Source of the DNA: an uncultured Gammaproteobacteria bacterium
GTDB lineage: Bacteria > Patescibacteriota > Patescibacteriia > Patescibacteriales > UBA12465
Length of the DNA: 57,829 nt
Direction: 5' to 3'
NCBI GenBank assembly: GCA_964588435.1
Contig: CAZPPI010000001.1
Span: 1 to 57,829 of the forward strand
Below are positions 157-34,956 of this stretch, piece after piece. The stretch's first letter is position 1, and each line of letters opens with the position of its first letter. Made by a program: the position numbers and the translations under genes. The notes beneath the pieces were generated by a model. It worked only from the letters and a program-made list of their open reading frames with translations. It made no database searches and was not told the origin of the DNA.

Positions 157-3100
157 TTACTCTCCAGACCAGTTCTTACACAAAACTTCGGCTTGTTCCA
201 AAACCGTTTTAGTGGCCAATTCTTGTTTATCGGGTGGATATTTATATTTATTCAACAATTTTTTGACCAAGACACGAAGTTTAGCTTGCACGCTTTGTTT
301 GAGTGTCCAATCAATAGAAGTATTTTTGCGAAGCATAATGACTAACTCTTGAGCAATCTTTTTTAAGGTATCATCTCCCAATTCCATCACCGCACTATCA
401 TTGGCGGAAAGAGCGTCATAAAATGCCACCTCATCTTCGGTCAGATTCAGATTACCACCTCGTTCTTTTTCTTCTCTAATCTTTTTAGCCAATTCTACTA
501 GCTCGGCAATAACCTGAGCAGCTTCAATGGTTTGGTTTTGATATTTTTTAATTGTCTCTTCAAGCATTTTGGCAAACGACCGAGATTTAACCAAAAACTT
601 CTTTTCCATTGTGCGAATCTCGTCATTCAAAAGTCGCTTCAAAACTTCCAAAGCCACATTCTTGCGTTCCAATCCCTGTACCTCCTGCAAAAATTCATCG
701 GACAAGACAGCGACGTTCGGACTTTTAAGTCCGGCCGCGTCAAAAATATTTATAACCTTATCGGAAGTAACAGCATCAGAAACAATTTGTTTAATTGCTT
801 GATCGTAATCTTCCATTGTCGGTCCGCCCAGTCCGCCGGTTTGTTCAAACTTAGCGATAAACGCACGCACTGTTTGAAAAAATGCCACCTCATCACGAAT
901 ACTTATAGCTTCATTACTTGGCACTGACAAAGCAAAAGCCTGTGACAATTCTGCGACAACCTGCAAGTATCGCTTTTTGCCGTTATCCATACCCAAGATA
1001 TGATCCATGGCTTGACCGGCAATTTCAGCTTTATCTCGAGCTTTGTCGGTAAAATAGCCGGAATAATTAAAACCGTGATACATGGTTTTAACCGTTTCGT
1101 ATTTCTCAAGCATGACACTAATGGCATCTTCCTGTTTAACTGTCGGCTCTTCCTTGCCTTCTTGCGTGTAGTACGAGAGAGCTTCTTTGAGAGATGGCGC
1201 GATACCAAGATAATCAACAATAAGTCCGCCCGGTTTATCTTTGTAGACACGATTAACGCGAGCGATGGCCTGCATTAGTCCATGGCCTTGCATCGGCTTA
1301 TCAACATACATCGTATGCATTGACGGCGCGTCAAAGCCGGTCAGCCACATATCACGAACAATAACCAACTTGAGATCGTCTTTCGGATCTTTCATGCGAT
1401 CAGCCAATAAATCCCGATCATCTTTAGTATGAATATGTTTCTGATAATTCGCCGGATCGCTGGCCGAACCGGTCATCACTACTTTTATAAAACCTTTTTT
1501 GATATCGTCGCTATGCCACTGCGGTCGCAATTTTATAATCTCATCGTAAAGTTCAACCGCAATTCTTCTGCTCATAGAAACAAACATGCCTTTGCCATCC
1601 ATTACACCAAGGCGAGCCTCAAAATGTTCTACCACATCTTTGGCGATCAAAGCGACTCTTTTTTCCGAACCGATCATTGCTTCAAGCCGTGCCCACTTGC
1701 TCTTGAGCCTCTCTTTCTTTTCAACTTCTTCACCCTCAGTCAGTTCTTCAAAATCAGCGTCAATTCTAGGAGTAAGCTCTTTTAATAATTCAATCTTAGC
1801 CAAACGAGCTTCGTAATAAATCGGCACAGTGGCTTTATCTAGAACAGCCCGGGTAATATCATAGACATCAATATATTCTCCAAAGACTGCTCTGGTATTT
1901 TTATCGGATAACTCAATTGGTGTGCCGGTAAAACCGATAAATGATGCGTTCGGCAAAGCATCGTGCATATGGCGAGCAAAGCCGTCCAGGAAATCATACT
2001 GACTGCGATGAGCTTCATCGGCAACAACTATGATATTTTTACGGTCAGAAAGAAGCGGATGTTTGTCGCCCTTTTCTTCCGGCATAAATTTTTGAATAGT
2101 CGTAAATACCACACCGCCGGAAGCAACTGATAGAAGTTTTTTCAAATCAGCCCTGTCTTGTGCTTGTCTTGGAGTCTGACGGACTAAATCACTGCAATGG
2201 GAGAATACACCAAACAATTGTCCGTCCAAGTCATTGCGATCAGTTAATAAAACTAAAGTCGGATTATCTAGGGCCTGAATTATTTTACCGGCGTAAAAAA
2301 CCATAGACAAAGACTTGCCGGAACCTTGAGTATGCCAAACCACACCAGCTCGACGGTCGCCATTAGGAGAAGATGCATCAACCGTTCTCTCAACTGCCTT
2401 ATTGACCGCAAAATACTGATGATAAGCCGATAATTTCTTGATAGTTTTACTGACGTTATTTTTAGAGTCCTTTTCGCTTTCAAAGACAATAAAGTTTTTG
2501 ATGACATCCAATATTCTGTCTTTAGTAAAAATACCTTTGATTAAAATTTCCAAGTCATTGGTTTTTGAAATCTTTTTGCCGTCAACACTTTTCCAGCCAA
2601 CAAAGCGATCCATATCAGCCGAGATCGTGCCTACCAAGGCGTTCTTAATATGATCAACTAAAATACAAATCTCATTATAGGTAAACAGAGACGGAACATC
2701 TGCCTTGTAAGTCTGCATCTGGTTAAAAGCACTTTTTATTATCGCATTGGCATCGGCCGGGTTTTTTAACTCAAAGATAGCAACCGGTAAACCATTTATG
2801 AAAATCAAAATGTCCGGTCGGCGATTGCGATTATTTTCAATGAACGTAAATTGATTAACGGCCAGCCAGTCGTTATTGTCTAAATTTTTTGTATCAAAAA
2901 GATAAACCTTATCACCAGCGATTGTGCCATCCTCTCGACTATATTCAACATCTACGCCCTCAACTAACATTTTATGAAAAGCTTGGTTTGTAGTTAAAAG
3001 ATCGGGACTAGAATAAGCAACGCTCACAATCTTTTTTATGGCATCCTCTTGAGCACCGTTTGGGATGTCAGGATTAATTTTGTTAACAGCCGAACGTAGA

Positions 3101-3258
3101 CGATCAATCAAAACAATATCTTTGTATGACTGTCTCTCCGGATGTTCGCCGTCAAAAGCAATATCCGGTCCAAAAGCGACCGCGTAGCCAAGCTCTTCCT
3201 CAAACCATTCAAGGATTGCTTCTTCTAAATCTGACTCGATGTACTTGTAGTGCTTCAT
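157..3258 (-). CDS. hsdR: Type I restriction enzyme R subunit (HsdR)
   Basis: 1033-aa ORF with an HsdR-type N-terminus ([19 protein letters not shown]...). SF2 helicase motifs are present ([22 protein letters not shown]). It is the last gene of a tightly packed minus-strand operon that starts with hsdM. Confidence 0.92.
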
Positions 3259-3262
3259 ATTA

Positions 3263-4879
3263 TTATCTTGGATTAAATGATTTGGTATTACATACTTCTA
3301 ACGCCTCAAAAATTAATGACATATCAGTTTCAAGTTGTGTTTGAGTGATTTTAGATGCCACATCTTTCGCATACTCAACCTTTTTGCCGTCCGCCTGAAG
3401 TTGATGTGCTTCGGCCGAGGTCTTCGTGTATGGTGTCGGGTAATATTCTTCCAAGGATTCAGTCGTCAATTCAAAAACTTGATTGTTATCAAAAAGGTAT
3501 GGATATCCTTGCTTAAATAAATTATATTTTGTCTGCTGCGCAGTGTTTGGCTTATCAATCAATACTATTGCTTTTTCTTTGTAAATTGGGTTATCCGATC
3601 CTGCCAAAGGACAAAATAATTTGTGTACCGCTAAAAGTGTCGGCTCTTGCTCGCTAATGTCTCCACCGGCAAACAAAATTTTTATACCGGCGTATTTATC
3701 CTTATAAAATCTTTTAATAATGGCACTGATAAATTCAAACTCACTTTTACCTTCAACTATTAAAAAGTTCCGTGGCAACAATAGATCGGAAGGACTACCA
3801 CCAAGCAAATCAAAAATGATATTAATTTTATCCACATCCTCAACTTTTTGGATGTCCGTTATTCCATTCGTCTTTTCAACTTTAAAAATAGTTTGGATCT
3901 CATTATTATCAACAACAACCACCGATGAATGGGTATTAACCAAAACCTGATCAGTACCACAAATGTCTATCAACGCCTTTTTTAAAGCTCTTTGAGCAGA
4001 TGGGTGTAAATGTAATTCTGCTTCGTCAATCATAAAAAGAAACGTTCCGCCACCTGTTTGCTTTTTCCTGTAATCAGCAAAAGCTTGAATGATAGACAGC
4101 ATTATTGCCCGTTGCATTCCGTCACCTTTGGCCTCAGCCTTAGTTTCTATTCCGTCATCTACGGTAGTATCAAAACTCTTTAATAAATCGGAAAAGTGTG
4201 GAGGGTTAACTCCAAATTTTACCTTTGTCCCGTCTGGAAATTGTTTTTGCAAATAAATCTCCACCTGACTACCGAGTTTATCAAGCTCTTTCCTAACCTC
4301 TGAATCAGCGTTATCAAAAAGTTTTGTAAATTGTTGTTTAAAATCAATATAGTCTTGGGAACTCTCAATAATTGCTGTCAAAACACCAGAAAGCATTATT
4401 CCGATTGGGTTTTTATCCTTATATTTTGAAACATCATCCAGTCGAATCTTAGTATTTACATATTCCAATTTTGGCAAGAACTCGTTTATTGCAGTATCAA
4501 GACCGGACGGATTACCTTTATCTTCGCCGTTAACAAAATATATTCGCTTATGGTTAGTGCTTGTTTTTAATACAGAAAAAGTCGTTGCATCACCGAGCAT
4601 ATTTTTAATTTTTGTCTTATTTGCGTCAGTAGTAAGTTTATCGATATCAGAAGTTTCAACATTATCAAAAAATATCTCCACACTAATTTTATTAGATTGA
4701 TCTTTACCAAAGTACTCCTCATCCTCAGATGATTTGGCATTATAAAACCACTCTATCGCTTCAAAAAAGTTAGTCTTACCGTGATTATTCTGGCCGATGA
4801 AAACAGAAAATTTACTTGGCTCAACCATGATCTTTTTAAGGGAACGATAATTTTCTACTATAATTTTTGATATTTTCAT
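3263..4879 (-). CDS. OLD-family-like ABC/AAA ATPase with C-terminal Toprim-like domain, embedded in the Type I R-M operon
   Basis: 538 aa. Walker A is GQNNHGKT, with a signature-like GDGMQR, Walker [13 protein letters not shown] and H-loop NTHS. The C-terminal [11 protein letters not shown] ... VLIDKP resembles a Toprim domain. Gaps to both neighbours are 4 nt. Confidence 0.75.
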
Positions 4880-32089: not shown

Positions 32090-32196
32090 AGAAAAAATAA
32101 ATAAAAGAAAGAAATTTTTAACAAAATTTCCTTTATATTTTAGCATTTTTAGGCTTTAAGGGCAAATTAATTGTCGTCTAATCTTTTTCACTTCTA

Positions 32197-32225
32197 TTGA
32201 CCCGTCTTAAAAATTAGTATATAAT
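32197..32225 (+). promoter_or_regulatory. Near-consensus sigma-70 promoter
   Basis: TTGACC (32197-32202), a 17-nt spacer, then TATAAT (32220-32225). Confidence 0.6.
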
Positions 32226-32231
32226 GTAAAT

Positions 32232-32330
32232 GCAAAAACTTGATATCCGAACTGTCACCGGATGGTGGCGTGGCTGGGACACCCAGCATAGGAATCATAG
32301 TTGGAAAAGTCTCCTTTAGGGAGTCTTTTT
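32232..32330 (+). ncRNA. Candidate ~100-nt small RNA (three-way junction plus terminator)
   Basis: It lies downstream of the consensus promoter. Helices are GAT(a)TCC/GGAATC, GTCACC-GGAT-GGTGGC and GCTGGG-ACA-CCCAGC. An AAAAGtCTCC-TTTAG-GGAGtCTTTT hairpin with a T-run follows. No ORF is present. Confidence 0.5.
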
Positions 32331-32957
32331 TTATTTAAATAACCACTTATCTTCAATTTTTTTCTTTATAATGTCTAAATAATCATTTCTGTCTTTTTTG
32401 TTTTTGTTTTGAGACCTGTTAATACTACCAGCCACCATATCCGCTAATTGAATAAGAGGATCACTTTTAGAATCAACCATTTTACAATTCTTAATAATAC
32501 TTCTCTGCCCATAATTCAATTCTTGTCTTAGGTAGCCAAAAAAGTTTCTTCTAAAAATTTTATTACCACCTCCGTCTATTCTTATTTTGGCGTTAAATAT
32601 TTTATTTCCATTATTTTTTAAAGCCTCTTTAATAAAATAAGCATAAAAAGAATCTTTACTGCTTCGTAACTCCGGGCTATAAATTAAGCTCTTATCTACA
32701 ATTAAACATCTTATTTTAAAATCAAATTTTTTAACTGTTTCTAAAAATTTTATTTTATAATCCCTGCAACTTTTAAAAAATTTAAATTCTTCAAGATCAC
32801 CAAGTTTTAAATCTCTTTTTAATTCTTTAATAGTTACCGTAGTTTTTTCTGCCTCTAAAGTGTCATTAAAACAAACCATCGCTATTACAAAATGGGTTGA
32901 AGATCCTTTTTCCATTTTAAATCCTGGATCACCAGAATCATCAATAAATACTAACAT
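32331..32957 (-). CDS. DUF3800 family protein
   Basis: 208 aa with the N-terminal MLVFIDDSGDPG motif typical of DUF3800 and a C-terminal QLADMVAG motif. Confidence 0.75.
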   Translation of the reverse strand: MLVFIDDSGDPGFKMEKGSSTHFVIAMVCFNDTLEAEKTTVTIKELKRDLKLGDLEEFKFFKSCRDYKIKFLETVKKFDFKIRCLIVDKSLIYSPELRSSKDSFYAYFIKEALKNNGNKIFNAKIRIDGGGNKIFRRNFFGYLRQELNYGQRSIIKNCKMVDSKSDPLIQLADMVAGSINRSQNKNKKDRNDYLDIIKKKIEDKWLFK

Positions 32958-33068
32958 TAAAATATATTTATAAAATCATACCCCTTATTGAAAATTATTT
33001 TCCCATTATAAACCATCACCCCTGAAAAAAAGTTAAATTTTAGATAAAGAAATTATGGGGATGGAAAT

Positions 33069-33430
33069 AAAAAAACCCGGGTTCCGTTAGAAACACCGGG
33101 TAAGACAAACTTCTAGAATTAGGCGATTCATTATCGCTTATTACCAACTCTCTGTAGACCTCCGTATGACCGCGGCTGGCTGGCACGGAGTTTTTCCCGT
33201 ATAAATTGCGCGCGTATTACGGGCAGATATACACTAGCCGACTACAAATCTTCCGAAGAAGATGATTGGATATAATTCAGAAATCTGTCGTCTAAATAAT
33301 ACAAAGTTGAACTTAAAAAGTCAAGACTCTCGCCAAATAACAGCAACATAAAAAATCAGGCAAAGTCTGGTCTTTTATATTACCGCACGGAGTCGTGAAC
33401 TGTGTTAAAACTGAAGTCGAGCTATAAAAA
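33069..33430 (-). ncRNA. Candidate structured ncRNA containing a 16S rRNA helix-18 (530-loop) look-alike (5' end approximate)
   Basis: ORF-free stretch, locally GC-richer than its flanks. Several hairpins are present, one UUCG-capped. An ACCCGG-15nt-CCGGGT hairpin plus U7 terminator lies at 33101->33069 on the minus strand. See the finding for the rRNA-like segment. Confidence 0.5.
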
Positions 33431-33603
33431 TATTAATTCCAAAATAAACAACTAAGAATAACTAATTTCCTTTATATTTAAATGTTTTCTTGACTTTTAA
33501 GCTAATATAATGTAATATAATAATATTAAGACAAAAGGGTCCCTGCGATCGAAAGATCAATGGTCCCCCTTTTTTTATTTTAACTGAATTATATGTTTTA
33601 TAT

Positions 33604-34140
33604 TTACAAAATAGTCGTAATACACTCTTGTAATTTTTTATACAGAGAGGATGCAAATTCCTTATTTGGAAATAATATTTTTTTAAACCTTCCTTCTTTA
33701 ATCAAAAAATCAACTAACATTTTATAATCTCCATCACTCGAAACGAGAACTATCTTGTCAAATTTTTCCTTATTATATAATTTCTACATAACAGCAAAGA
33801 TAATATCAGAATCAACATTTCCCTTCTTTTTACCCAACATGGCGGAGTTATGTTCTCTAAATTTTAAAACAAATCCGGCTTCTTAAATTTTATCATACAA
33901 TCCACTTCTCTCATTAATAACAAAACCGAGAAAATAGTAAGCAATAGAAACATTGTATTTTTTCTTTAAATATTCTCTAAACTTAACAAAGTCAATGTCC
34001 CACGCAGGATTACCTGAATTAACGCCCATATACAGATTTTGCCCATCAATAAAGGCTATATTATTTTCTTGTTGTTTTGTGTTATTTATATTTTTATTAT
34101 AACACATCAAATAATATCTTAAAAATAATAAAAATATCAC
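33604..34140 (-). pseudogene. NYN/LabA-like (PIN-related RNase) gene interrupted by two in-frame stop codons
   Basis: One frame reads ...NIAFIDGQNLYMG...GLYDKI*EAGFVLKFREHNSAMLGKKKGNVDSDIIFAVM*KLYNKEKFDKIVLVSSDGDYKMLVDFL...TIL*. The in-frame stops are TAA at 33883-85 and TAG at 33784-86. The IDGQNL and SSDGDY motifs are NYN hallmarks. Confidence 0.75.
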
Positions 34141-34227
34141 TATTTTTAGCGATATTTAAAATAAGTGCACGGGCAACATGGCTCGACTGGAACACTATTA
34201 AAAACGCGGTGATAAGGTGGAAATCCT

Positions 34228-34803
34228 TTACCGACTTACATGGTAGCCTTCTTTAGAAGCAAATTTAATAAGCTTCTTCATATTGTCTACCGCTCCTTCA
34301 ATAACCGCATTATAAATAACGAAACTCGGTAAATCTATTTTTTCATCTTTAACTATTTTTTTTAATTCGAGTATTTTGTTACGCCTTTCATCGTTTAGCT
34401 CACGTATAACCTTCTTCATAAACCCACTGCTTATGCCGTCCATAGTTTTCATAAACCAAATATCAATTTTCCATTTTTTACTACTATGCCTTGTTTTGAG
34501 ACCAATATAATAACCCTTTGGAAAACCTTTTTCACGTCGATGAACAAAATCATAAAATAAATAGCCACGAAAACTATTTTTAGATATTAAATCGTTCAAG
34601 CATTTAATTGCTCTCTCTTTAGAAAACTGCTTATCAATAACGTAGATATCAATATCTCCATCAACCATTAAATCTAGTTGGTAACTCCCCATCTTATAAA
34701 CACTACCGTATTTTTCAAGCAACTCAATTAAGCCTGTTTTCCCCAATAACAAATCAGCTGTTTTCTTTAATTTTTTAGAGAGGTTTTGTAATTCATTGTT
34801 CAT
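34228..34803 (-). CDS. Nucleotidyltransferase-fold protein
   Basis: GS...DGDIDIYV (NTase GS-DxD pattern) and a KIDIW strand. The start is set at the internal ATG 34803. Confidence 0.6.
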   Translation of the reverse strand: MNNELQNLSKKLKKTADLLLGKTGLIELLEKYGSVYKMGSYQLDLMVDGDIDIYVIDKQFSKERAIKCLNDLISKNSFRGYLFYDFVHRREKGFPKGYYIGLKTRHSSKKWKIDIWFMKTMDGISSGFMKKVIRELNDERRNKILELKKIVKDEKIDLPSFVIYNAVIEGAVDNMKKLIKFASKEGYHVSR

Positions 34804-34885
34804 ATCACAATTATAACACAAGTGTTCCATTAGTAAAAATTGCAAAACAAAAAATAACCCTAAAATTAGAGTTATTTTTTATAAG

Positions 34886-34956
34886 CACGGGCGGCAGGAA
34901 TTGAACCCACGCTAGAGGTTTTGGAGACCCCTGTACTACCACTATACGACGCCCGC
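34886..34956 (-). tRNA. tRNA-Trp (CCA)
   Basis: 71-nt cloverleaf. Acceptor is GCGGGCG/CGCCCGT (G1-U72), anticodon loop CTCCAAA, T arm GTGGG-TTCAATT-CCTGC and discriminator G. Confidence 0.85.

Follow-up and report, generated by a model that had tools for sequence, protein, structure and literature searches.

In bacteria, the leaders of several ribosomal-protein mRNAs (S8, S15, L1, L20, L10) imitate the protein-binding sites of ribosomal RNA (rRNA). Other RNAs act as decoys or pseudo-substrates. In type III toxin-antitoxin systems ToxI is an antitoxin RNA of this kind; phages have RNA anti-CRISPRs, made in the likeness of CRISPR repeats, and tRNAs that stand in for those of the host once these are cleaved. 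Elements of this sort are as a rule sporadic and reside in variable islands and phages. Yet other small units, the miniature inverted-repeat transposable elements (MITEs) and palindromic elements such as Correia, RUP and the Rickettsia palindromic elements (RPEs), are spread through bacterial genomes. To our knowledge no decoy made of an rRNA hairpin has been described, and searches of the literature on mimics of 16S rRNA helix 18 (h18, the 530-loop hairpin) and on rRNA mimicry turned up no free-standing helix-18 mimic, an absence that is no proof of novelty. Here we describe a near-verbatim copy of the h18 hairpin that lies alone, outside any rRNA gene, in a predicted small RNA of a Patescibacteria genome, where we tentatively read it as a bait. 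The DNA analysed, hereafter the window, is a stretch of 57,829 nt (GenBank assembly GCA_964588435.1, contig CAZPPI010000001.1), and the small RNA lies there between a DUF3800 gene and a decayed NYN gene. DUF3800 genes associate with eleven unrelated structured RNAs, found on either side of the gene and on either strand (Weinberg et al. 2017, PMC5737381), and the DUF3800 fold is RNase H-like (PMC7736814, PMC10910872).

The copy occupies the minus strand from 33192 to 33159, where it reads AACTCCGTGCCAGCCAGCCGCGGTCATACGGAGG, and comprises the upper stem and the loop of h18:

33159 to 33192, minus strand: h18 copy, AACUCCGUGCCAGC[C]AGCCGCGGU[C]AUACGGAGG, upper stem and loop

It departs from 16S by one inserted C and one A-to-C change, the latter at the first A of GGUAAUAC, about E. 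coli A532. It aligns with positions 499-531 of the Salmonella 16S gene, and the local alignment scores 56 against a shuffle maximum of 26 (n = 100). When 16S was compared by BLAST with the whole window, these nucleotides gave the sole match (E = 5e-6, 94% over 34 nt); conversely, a 381-nt piece of the locus searched against 2.3 Gb of phage-collection records matched annotated 16S genes only, and with these 34 nt only. By both measures the match is far beyond chance. A preliminary description of the locus had reported a near-exact h18 copy with just these two differences and had called it rRNA-derived or rRNA-mimicking, and alignment and BLAST support it on both counts. The limits of the similarity coincide with those of the upper h18 stem and do not fall just anywhere in the 16S gene.

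Nothing else at the locus resembles 16S: local alignments of all other pieces of the RNA stay at shuffle level, and the similarity is confined to the 34 nt. Rfam covariance models gave no small-subunit (SSU) rRNA match in 32100-34300 at E <= 10 and, at gathering threshold over the whole window, four tRNAs and a DUF3800-IX RNA and no rRNA, which bears out the earlier placement of the copy outside an rRNA gene and without flanking 16S. The context of an rRNA operon (23S, 5S, spacer tRNAs) was not found near the copy, and the BLAST search with 16S gave no second segment. Moreover, an independent Logan assembly (L001, from SRR8925774) is identical over the 1.5 kb compared, and unique sequence lies on either side of the rRNA-like part. 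Since this part is 34 nt long, has unique flanks and recurs in an independent assembly, an origin as a chimera or from a broken rRNA operon is excluded as far as sequence alone can show, and the copy is, on these comparisons, real and not the remnant of an rRNA gene.

What, then, carries the hairpin? It sits in a lineage-specific, probably transcribed unit without open reading frame (ORF), which exactly fills the gap (33344->33075) between an NYN cassette ending at about 33345 and a DUF3800 cassette starting at 33074. The parts of this unit are as follows:

33069 to 33289, minus strand: predicted stand-alone small RNA, about 220 nt, no credible ORF (from promoter and terminator prediction)
33296 to 33324, minus strand: sigma-70-like promoter, TTGACT, 17 nt, TATTAT, 10/12 consensus matches (prediction only)
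33273 to 33289, minus strand: closing stem, 5' arm, GACAGAUUUCUGAAUUA, pairs with 33121->33104
33248 to 33263, minus strand: UUCG-capped hairpin, AUCUUC UUCG GAAGAU
33196 to 33223, minus strand: CCCGUA...UACGGG hairpin, whose strands are able to pair instead with both strands of the h18 hairpin
33123 to 33137, minus strand: hairpin GCGAU AAUGA AUCGC
33104 to 33121, minus strand: closing stem, 3' arm, UAAUUCUAGAAGUUUGUC, pairs with 33289->33273
33069 to 33101, minus strand: intrinsic terminator, an interrupted 11-bp stem followed by U7

All motifs listed in the preliminary description, from the h18-like and "loop-deleted" strings to the three hairpins and the terminator, are present at their positions. 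The features of a small RNA gene (own promoter, terminator, no ORF) were all found, by prediction only. Transcription is predicted to start near 33289, and only two sites with at least 10/12 promoter matches occur in 32100-34300, the other one preceding the DUF3800-IX RNA. The only ORF of the locus, a 48-aa GTG frame, crosses the terminator, so that the locus was aptly called ORF-free. The hairpin stands in sense orientation on the minus strand of this terminator-ended unit, as first described; the converse suggestion, a plus-strand transcript antisense to the 530 loop, has nothing in its favour, for want of an upstream promoter on that strand and of a plus-strand T-run, the T-run of the terminator being present on the minus strand only. 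The Rfam search, which had been proposed as a check, assigned 33069-33430 to no family either at gathering threshold or at E <= 10, in agreement with the view that the RNA belongs to no known class.

The whole RNA is predicted to fold with a minimum free energy (MFE) of -73.6 kcal/mol (z = -4.2, 200 shuffles), closed by a 17-bp stem with two G-U pairs and one bulge. Its GC content is 44%, with a peak of 48-52%, against 33.6% for the window; a nearby tRNA and the DUF3800-IX RNA show similar peaks. We considered and set aside a rod-like inverted repeat at the centre (arm complementarity p about 0.035, fold z = -0.3) and a reading of the 33223->33196 hairpin as a degenerate duplicate of h18, whose similarity fell short of significance (p about 0.2-0.3). 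Nor did the RNA pair in antisense with the 5' region of DUF3800, the IX RNA or a mini-RNA of the NYN cassette any better than shuffles did. Separately, the heptamer GGTAATA occurs 21 times in the window against 8.2 expected (0/100 shuffles reach 21); in the region studied it stands at 33378-33384, in the 3' element of the NYN cassette, and at 33139-33145, in the h18 RNA.

The window is not alone in carrying such a hairpin. A metagenome scan with the pattern GTGCCAGCNNGCCGCGGTNATAC, in which the extra loop base was required, matched true, if noisy, 16S genes in 24 cases and otherwise four contigs that are nearly identical to one another (L084, L099, L106, L108), one bacterium in four metagenome contigs of the Joint Genome Institute (JGI). 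The copy in L084 and its three equivalents sits between a UvrD-like gene and a PHP-like gene and reads TTCTGCC-GTGCCAGCAGGCCGCGGTTATAC-GGCAAG (as RNA, CUGCC-GUGCCAGCAGGCCGCGGUUAUAC-GGCAAG). Its stem, UGCCG/CGGCA as against CUCCG/CGGAG, has two pairs changed on both sides and is still paired, and the loop position that is A in 24/24 true 16S matches is U in these contigs and C in the window. Nine bases downstream, CCTTGTACACAACGCCC resembles the 1400 region of 16S with one mismatch (score 30, above all 100 shuffles), and a terminator-like hairpin comes after it. The L084-type RNA and the window RNA have the hairpin alone in common. The L084 unit could be a miniature mimic of the decoding centre or a heavily deleted 16S relic. 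It forms an intergenic RNA-like unit (L084 5110-5335, also in L099, L106 and L108) with weaker, collinear 16S-like bits upstream. The UvrD-like gene beside it is broken up over several ORFs, perhaps because the organism uses an alternative genetic code.

Phages provide two more cases. The exact 22-mer GTGCCAGCAGCCGCGGTAATAC occurs 4 times in 2.9 million viral contigs, twice in true 16S and twice in isolation (L113 and L111). In L113 (2505-2552, minus strand) the arrangement is GTCACCGGC-loop-GCTGGTGAC, with a loop identical at 22/22 positions on a 9-bp stem of different sequence; the outer part of the stem resembles the lower h18 stem, and a second hairpin follows. This copy is intergenic within a phage replication module, between the gene of an acidic protein and a VRR-NUC gene, upstream of the latter. 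In L111 (3799-3844) it is CCTCCCCCG-loop-CGGAGGAGG, again with a 22/22 loop and with extended stems, and here the Rfam SSU model aligns with the copy (E = 0.0036). The chance expectation for a given 22-mer in the viral collection is well below one. At about 6e-14 (4^-22) per position, two isolated exact 22-mers with flanking complementarity are not chance. A looser search of the viral contigs, with an 18-mer and degenerate h18 patterns, gave matches at chance level or of organelle-type rRNA, which we discarded.

Isolated 530-loop hairpins with flanks unlike 16S are thus found in the window, in L084/L099/L106/L108, in L113 and in L111. Taken alone, all four fold like h18. Each has a setting of its own: the window copy lies in a nuclease island, the L084-type copy in the intergenic region of UvrD-like and PHP-like genes, and the phage copies in a replication module (L113) and a structural ORF (L111). 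As controls, two 22-mers from other universal regions of 16S gave rRNA or contig-end matches only and no isolated copy, and about 658 kb of non-rRNA loci held no other 16S-like fragment; the numbers in both controls are small. In a plasmid collection the matches were to real rRNA operons, apart from a partial one due to chance (L150) and a Ralstonia record that is contaminated. The contaminated record (L151) is GenBank CP011998.1, 1,198,749-1,238,783, filed as a "plasmid" of Ralstonia solanacearum YC45; there, 16S fragments from unrelated taxa, more than 30 in number and each about 470 nt long (the size of V3-V4), follow one another head to tail, an amplicon-concatemer contamination of a public assembly.

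True relatives of the window RNA are a different matter. By BLAST and a fuzzy h18 pattern, no homologue was found in 80 DUF3800 loci, 13 NYN loci, four sister loci or cultured-phage records, except for the terminator in one sister genome (L136), and none in 867 kb of related loci; the fuzzy pattern returned nothing beyond the hits of the pattern scans. Syntenic copies in related genomes, which the preliminary description had proposed to look for, did not appear: the unit is absent from every relative examined. The sister genomes (L135-L138), which we located through the adjacent nucleotidyltransferase gene, have 82-85% DNA identity and are syntenic only from window position 32172 downward; 0/4 of their loci have the unit.

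One of them may retain the state before the unit arrived. In L136, behind an unrelated 150-aa gene, TTGAATTTTTAAGTTGAATTTTTT is directly joined to CTTACCCGGTGTTTTAAGGAGCACCGGGTTTTTT. The first part resembles window 33324->33297 (28 nt, 82%), the second the window terminator (44 nt, 82%, E = 3e-4), and the 10-mer TTACCCGGTG was found in 3/149 loci compared (L001, L136, L046). Against this older 3' untranslated region (UTR) and terminator, the window would hold an extra piece:

33105 to 33300, minus strand: apparent 196-nt insertion relative to the L136 UTR-terminator (one distant comparison, about 82% identity)

At its edges lie imperfect 9-nt direct repeats, CAACTTTGT (33309->33301) and GAAGTTTGT (33113->33105). 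At the DNA level the arms of the closing stem are complementary at 15/17 positions, with TTA on both sides; the boundaries are ambiguous. We tentatively propose that the body of the RNA, with its h18 copy, was inserted between an older 3' UTR and its terminator. The 196-nt unit is single-copy in the window, none occurs in the 867 kb of related loci, and no protein remnants of the L136 genes were found in 33000-34000. Beside this, an exact 10-nt direct repeat, TTAGACGACA, occurs on the minus strand at 33286-33295 and 32172-32181, its only two copies in the window and all loci compared. The two bracket 1.1 kb that comprise the h18 RNA and the DUF3800 cassette, and the second lies just outside this cassette, where synteny with the sister genomes resumes.

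On both sides the unit is bordered by cassettes of another kind. Downstream come a DUF3800 gene, recognised as such with a Pfam E of 1e-16 in line with the first identification, and its RNA:

32190 to 33074, minus strand: DUF3800 cassette, 885 nt, 95.7% identity to L002 (context, outside the unit)
32237 to 32306, plus strand: DUF3800-IX RNA (RF02968), 51.6 bits, with promoter at 32197-32225 and terminator at 32311-32323

The cassette contains its own upstream and promoter region, the gene (32957->32331) and the convergent DUF3800-IX RNA. In L002, a Candidatus Falkowbacteria genome, it lies at 2884-3768, and the flanks on both sides are unrelated to those of the window; the gene-RNA pair behaves as a very small mobile or exchangeable module, given 95.7% identity despite unrelated flanks. 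The DUF3800-IX RNA lies about 30 nt past the DUF3800 stop, on the opposite strand, in 20/20 related loci tested, and because of this constant place it is the cognate RNA of this DUF3800 subfamily. The part shared with L002, the closest DUF3800 relative, excludes the h18 unit, which is absent there; what precedes the cassette in L002 has no residual similarity to the window RNA, with a score lower than the mean of the shuffles, and h18-like or otherwise similar sequence was found in 0/80 related DUF3800 loci.

Upstream, the NYN cassette (window 34170->33480) has 83-85% identity to NYN loci of other Patescibacteria (L115, L116/L117, L126), and weaker alignable similarity extends to about 33345:

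33345 to 33397, minus strand: 3' end of the NYN cassette, hairpin CACGACUCCGUG, A-rich linker, terminator; alignable with L115, L126 and L116 (context, outside the unit)

This end matters since the preliminary description had seen a second, loop-deleted h18 copy there. The string is present at 33393->33378; it is not, though, an independent relic of h18. It is the window version of a conserved 3' element of NYN cassettes, aligned to GGTCCCGTGCCAAATAAAAA in L126 and GAGCCTGTGCAGATAAAAT in L115, with CACGnnnnCGUG as the small terminal hairpin of the cassette. Because the element is conserved in NYN cassettes elsewhere, its likeness to h18 is mostly family sequence and not rRNA-derived. An h18-like sequence occurs in 0/13 of the NYN loci compared. 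The NYN frame itself (33594-34140, minus strand) is 79-90% identical to intact relatives of 171 aa and contains two in-frame stops (TAA after ...LYDKI, TAG after ...IFAVM) and no frameshift, which indicates a recent pseudogene or, less likely, read-through, and agrees with the decay first noted. A conserved mini-RNA is also present in NYN (LabA-type) cassettes. About 50 nt long, it has a promoter and a terminator of its own and converges on the 3' end of the NYN gene. In the window it lies at about 33525-33585 on the plus strand (promoter 33490-33518), and it is found downstream of NYN in L115, L116 and L126 as well; the layout is like that of DUF3800 with IX, and the mini-RNA matches no Rfam family.

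The genes around the locus are DUF3800, NYN, a Pol-beta-type nucleotidyltransferase and a sugar nucleotidyltransferase. The island begins at a tRNA gene (34886-34956), next to which comes the Pol-beta-type nucleotidyltransferase gene (window 34228-34956), a gene that precedes NYN in L115 too; such a tRNA-adjacent layout is that of an integration hotspot or defence island. A 43% GC peak at 34150-34250, between the nucleotidyltransferase and NYN genes and at the start of the conserved NYN cassette, may be a further small structured element. The locus also illustrates how Patescibacteria islands are built of tiny self-contained cassettes, each a nuclease gene plus its own convergent small RNA, a layout that bears on the long-open question of the role of DUF3800 and its many RNA partners. 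Judged by these comparisons, we hold with good confidence that the h18 unit is independent of both cassettes.

To explain the hairpin, we lean, tentatively and at somewhat less than even chances, towards an orphan small RNA that displays an rRNA-derived hairpin as a bait or decoy. The RNA would be the product of a lineage-specific, independently transcribed gene (about 33289->33069, minus strand) that arose by insertion of about 200 nt into an older 3' UTR-terminator, within a hypervariable island of self-contained cassettes that each pair a nuclease gene with a small RNA. Its cargo would be the hairpin from 16S helix 18, presented as bait: a protein that normally recognises, cuts or modifies the ribosomal 530-loop hairpin would bind the abundant small RNA instead. 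The partner might be a defence nuclease or toxin, a factor of phage origin, or a protein that modifies rRNA or takes part in assembly, and the small RNA would then be an orphan immunity or decoy RNA, the equivalent in RNA of an orphan antitoxin. We favour a bait because the copy stops at the helix ends, because independent cases keep the loop while stems change and stay paired, because h18 is found in isolation where control segments are not, and because variable islands and phage accessory positions typify the parts of defence and counter-defence systems. Taken together, the other isolated hairpins, with their conserved loops and changed but paired stems, make a decoy more plausible than the window copy would by itself.

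Several observations pull the other way. The RNA shows neither conservation nor covariation, since it is absent from L002 and from the 80 DUF3800, 13 NYN and four sister loci, and the window copy is altered at two universally conserved positions of the loop. The central 110 nt are not stabler than shuffles (z = -0.3); the MFE fold pairs both h18 strands with the upstream hairpin, and a free h18 hairpin, if forced on the prediction, costs 2.8 kcal/mol relative to the MFE and has a pair probability of 0.07. The look of a gene may be partly accidental, because the -35 box and the terminator appear to be inherited from the older UTR. The phage cases add to these doubts. The L111 copy lies within an intact 154-aa ORF of a phage structural module, where it encodes PPPPPVPAAAVIPEED, a situation that suits mutational capture. 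Close relatives of the L113 phage (L140 and L144, 87-94% VRR-NUC protein identity) bear other hairpins at that place, so the 530-loop element is as sporadic in phages as in the lineage of the window.

Nearly as likely as a bait, at about one chance in three, is a neutral and recent capture, in which repair, template switching or the traffic of a small mobile element placed a short piece of 16S, from rDNA or rRNA, in an intergenic 3' UTR. The piece would now be transcribed incidentally, with no function, and would still look intact because it is recent. This would account for the lack of conservation in any relative, the decaying mosaic region beside an NYN pseudogene, the insertion-like look (9-nt imperfect direct repeats and inverted-repeat-like ends), the equally sporadic phage analogues, one of them within an ORF, and a central fold no better than chance. 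It sits less well with fragment boundaries that are helix boundaries, with independent cases whose loops are 22/22 identical while their stems are changed yet paired, and with the lack of isolated copies of the control 22-mers and of other rRNA fragments in 658 kb of comparable loci; and if a mobile unit brought the piece, no second copy of it exists in the window or in 867 kb of loci. A quite improbable idea is that we see the trace of a small non-autonomous, MITE-like element, with the h18 part tied to the biology of the element, for instance as a former rDNA target. The closing stem does resemble terminal inverted repeats (15/17 at the DNA level), the 9-nt imperfect repeats, with TTA on both sides, are candidate target duplications, L136 offers a sequence like an empty site, and the 10-nt direct repeat recurs at 33295 and 32181. 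Against it, the unit is single-copy in everything searched, no transposase lies nearby, the boundaries are ambiguous, and two pairs of the stem are G-U, pairing only in the minus-strand RNA.

The neighbouring genes suggest two further explanations. Lying directly upstream of DUF3800 and downstream of NYN, the RNA might be a partner (antidote or guide) of the DUF3800 nuclease, as a twelfth "DUF3800 motif", or of the NYN RNase, and DUF3800 is indeed known with eleven unrelated structured RNAs (PMC5737381) and has an RNase H-like fold (PMC7736814, PMC10910872). We consider this unlikely: the discrete 885-bp cassette excludes the unit, motif IX is the cognate RNA in 20/20 loci, and another h18-like RNA (L084) lies between UvrD-like and PHP-like genes. 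A functional tie to either neighbour finds no support from comparison, h18-like sequence being present in 0/80 DUF3800 and 0/13 NYN loci. The unit might instead act in cis, as a read-through region or attenuator for DUF3800 or as a plain upstream terminator region, being on the same strand as the gene, ending 112 nt ahead of its start codon and having a terminator inherited from an older gene. Such a role has little in its favour once it is seen that the conserved cassette brings along DUF3800's own upstream region, that the element is missing in L002 and others, that a strong U7 terminator stands between the unit and DUF3800, and that the NYN cassette upstream has a terminator of its own; it seems to us about as improbable as a MITE-like trace. 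Finally, that the whole signal is an artefact (a chimera with an rRNA contig, what is left of a disrupted rRNA operon, or an RNA from the plus strand that is antisense to 16S) is the remotest of these explanations, given the identical independent assembly, the 34-nt rRNA-like part between unique sequences, the lack of further rRNA-like sequence in 57.8 kb, and promoter and T-run signals that leave the plus strand without either.

If the bait is functional, there should be a hitherto unrecognised protein directed against the decoding-centre hairpin of the small subunit, be it a toxin, a defence effector or a phage factor, and rRNA mimicry by a free-standing small RNA would join tRNA mimics, CRISPR-repeat mimics and pseudo-substrate antitoxin RNAs. 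More speculatively, and we would not bet on it, isolated near-verbatim 530-loop hairpins may form an unrecognised class of decoy RNAs in defence-type islands of Patescibacteria and accessory positions of phages. Were this true, the decoys would draw off whatever factors recognise or attack the decoding-centre hairpin of 16S, in an RNA-level arms race on biology's most conserved sequence. If neutral capture is the answer, the locus is still of practical use as a caution, since genomes and phages can harbour the 515F primer site away from any rRNA gene.

How does the window RNA compare with the systems from which we started? To helix 18 itself it is very close, with 32/33 bases equal to the consensus plus one insertion, the CUCCG/CGGAG stem and the loop kept, and the sense orientation; unlike h18 it is isolated, lacks the lower h18 stem and the rest of 16S, and lies within a small terminator-ended transcript. 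With the ribosomal-protein leaders it would share the principle that a protein is drawn from the ribosome to a non-rRNA transcript by the likeness of an rRNA binding site. The leaders, however, lie in the 5' UTRs of ribosomal-protein operons and mimic shape with few shared bases, whereas the window RNA is copied almost verbatim, ends in a terminator and has no ribosomal-protein gene downstream: a terminator and then DUF3800 follow it, and the NYN cassette precedes it. Like the DUF3800 motifs I-XI (PMC5737381), it is a structured, terminator-ended RNA beside a DUF3800 gene in a Patescibacteria genome, but it matches none of their Rfam models and does not travel with DUF3800. The proposed mechanism is that of RNA decoys, small RNAs that titrate a protein by their likeness to its natural RNA target or partner; unlike these, the window RNA has no tandem repeats. 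In particular, ToxI-like organisation is lacking: the direct repeats in 33000-33700 all belong to families of two copies, 9-21 nt in length, which lie 93-605 nt from each other and so are not in tandem, and a terminator separates the RNA from DUF3800. Nor is there a reverse transcriptase gene among the neighbours, as a retron non-coding RNA would have. MITEs and palindromic elements offer likenesses of size (about 200 nt), of inverted-repeat ends that form a long stem, of a possible target duplication and of an apparent empty site, and one phage analogue lies in frame within an ORF, as RPEs do; the window unit differs from them in being single-copy in the sequence searched and in having an rRNA-derived core. 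The window RNA is a member of none of these families, with which its location, repeat structure and partner genes do not agree. We regard it as a case of rRNA mimicry by a non-rRNA transcript, real and unusual as an element, with its function as bait a proposal.

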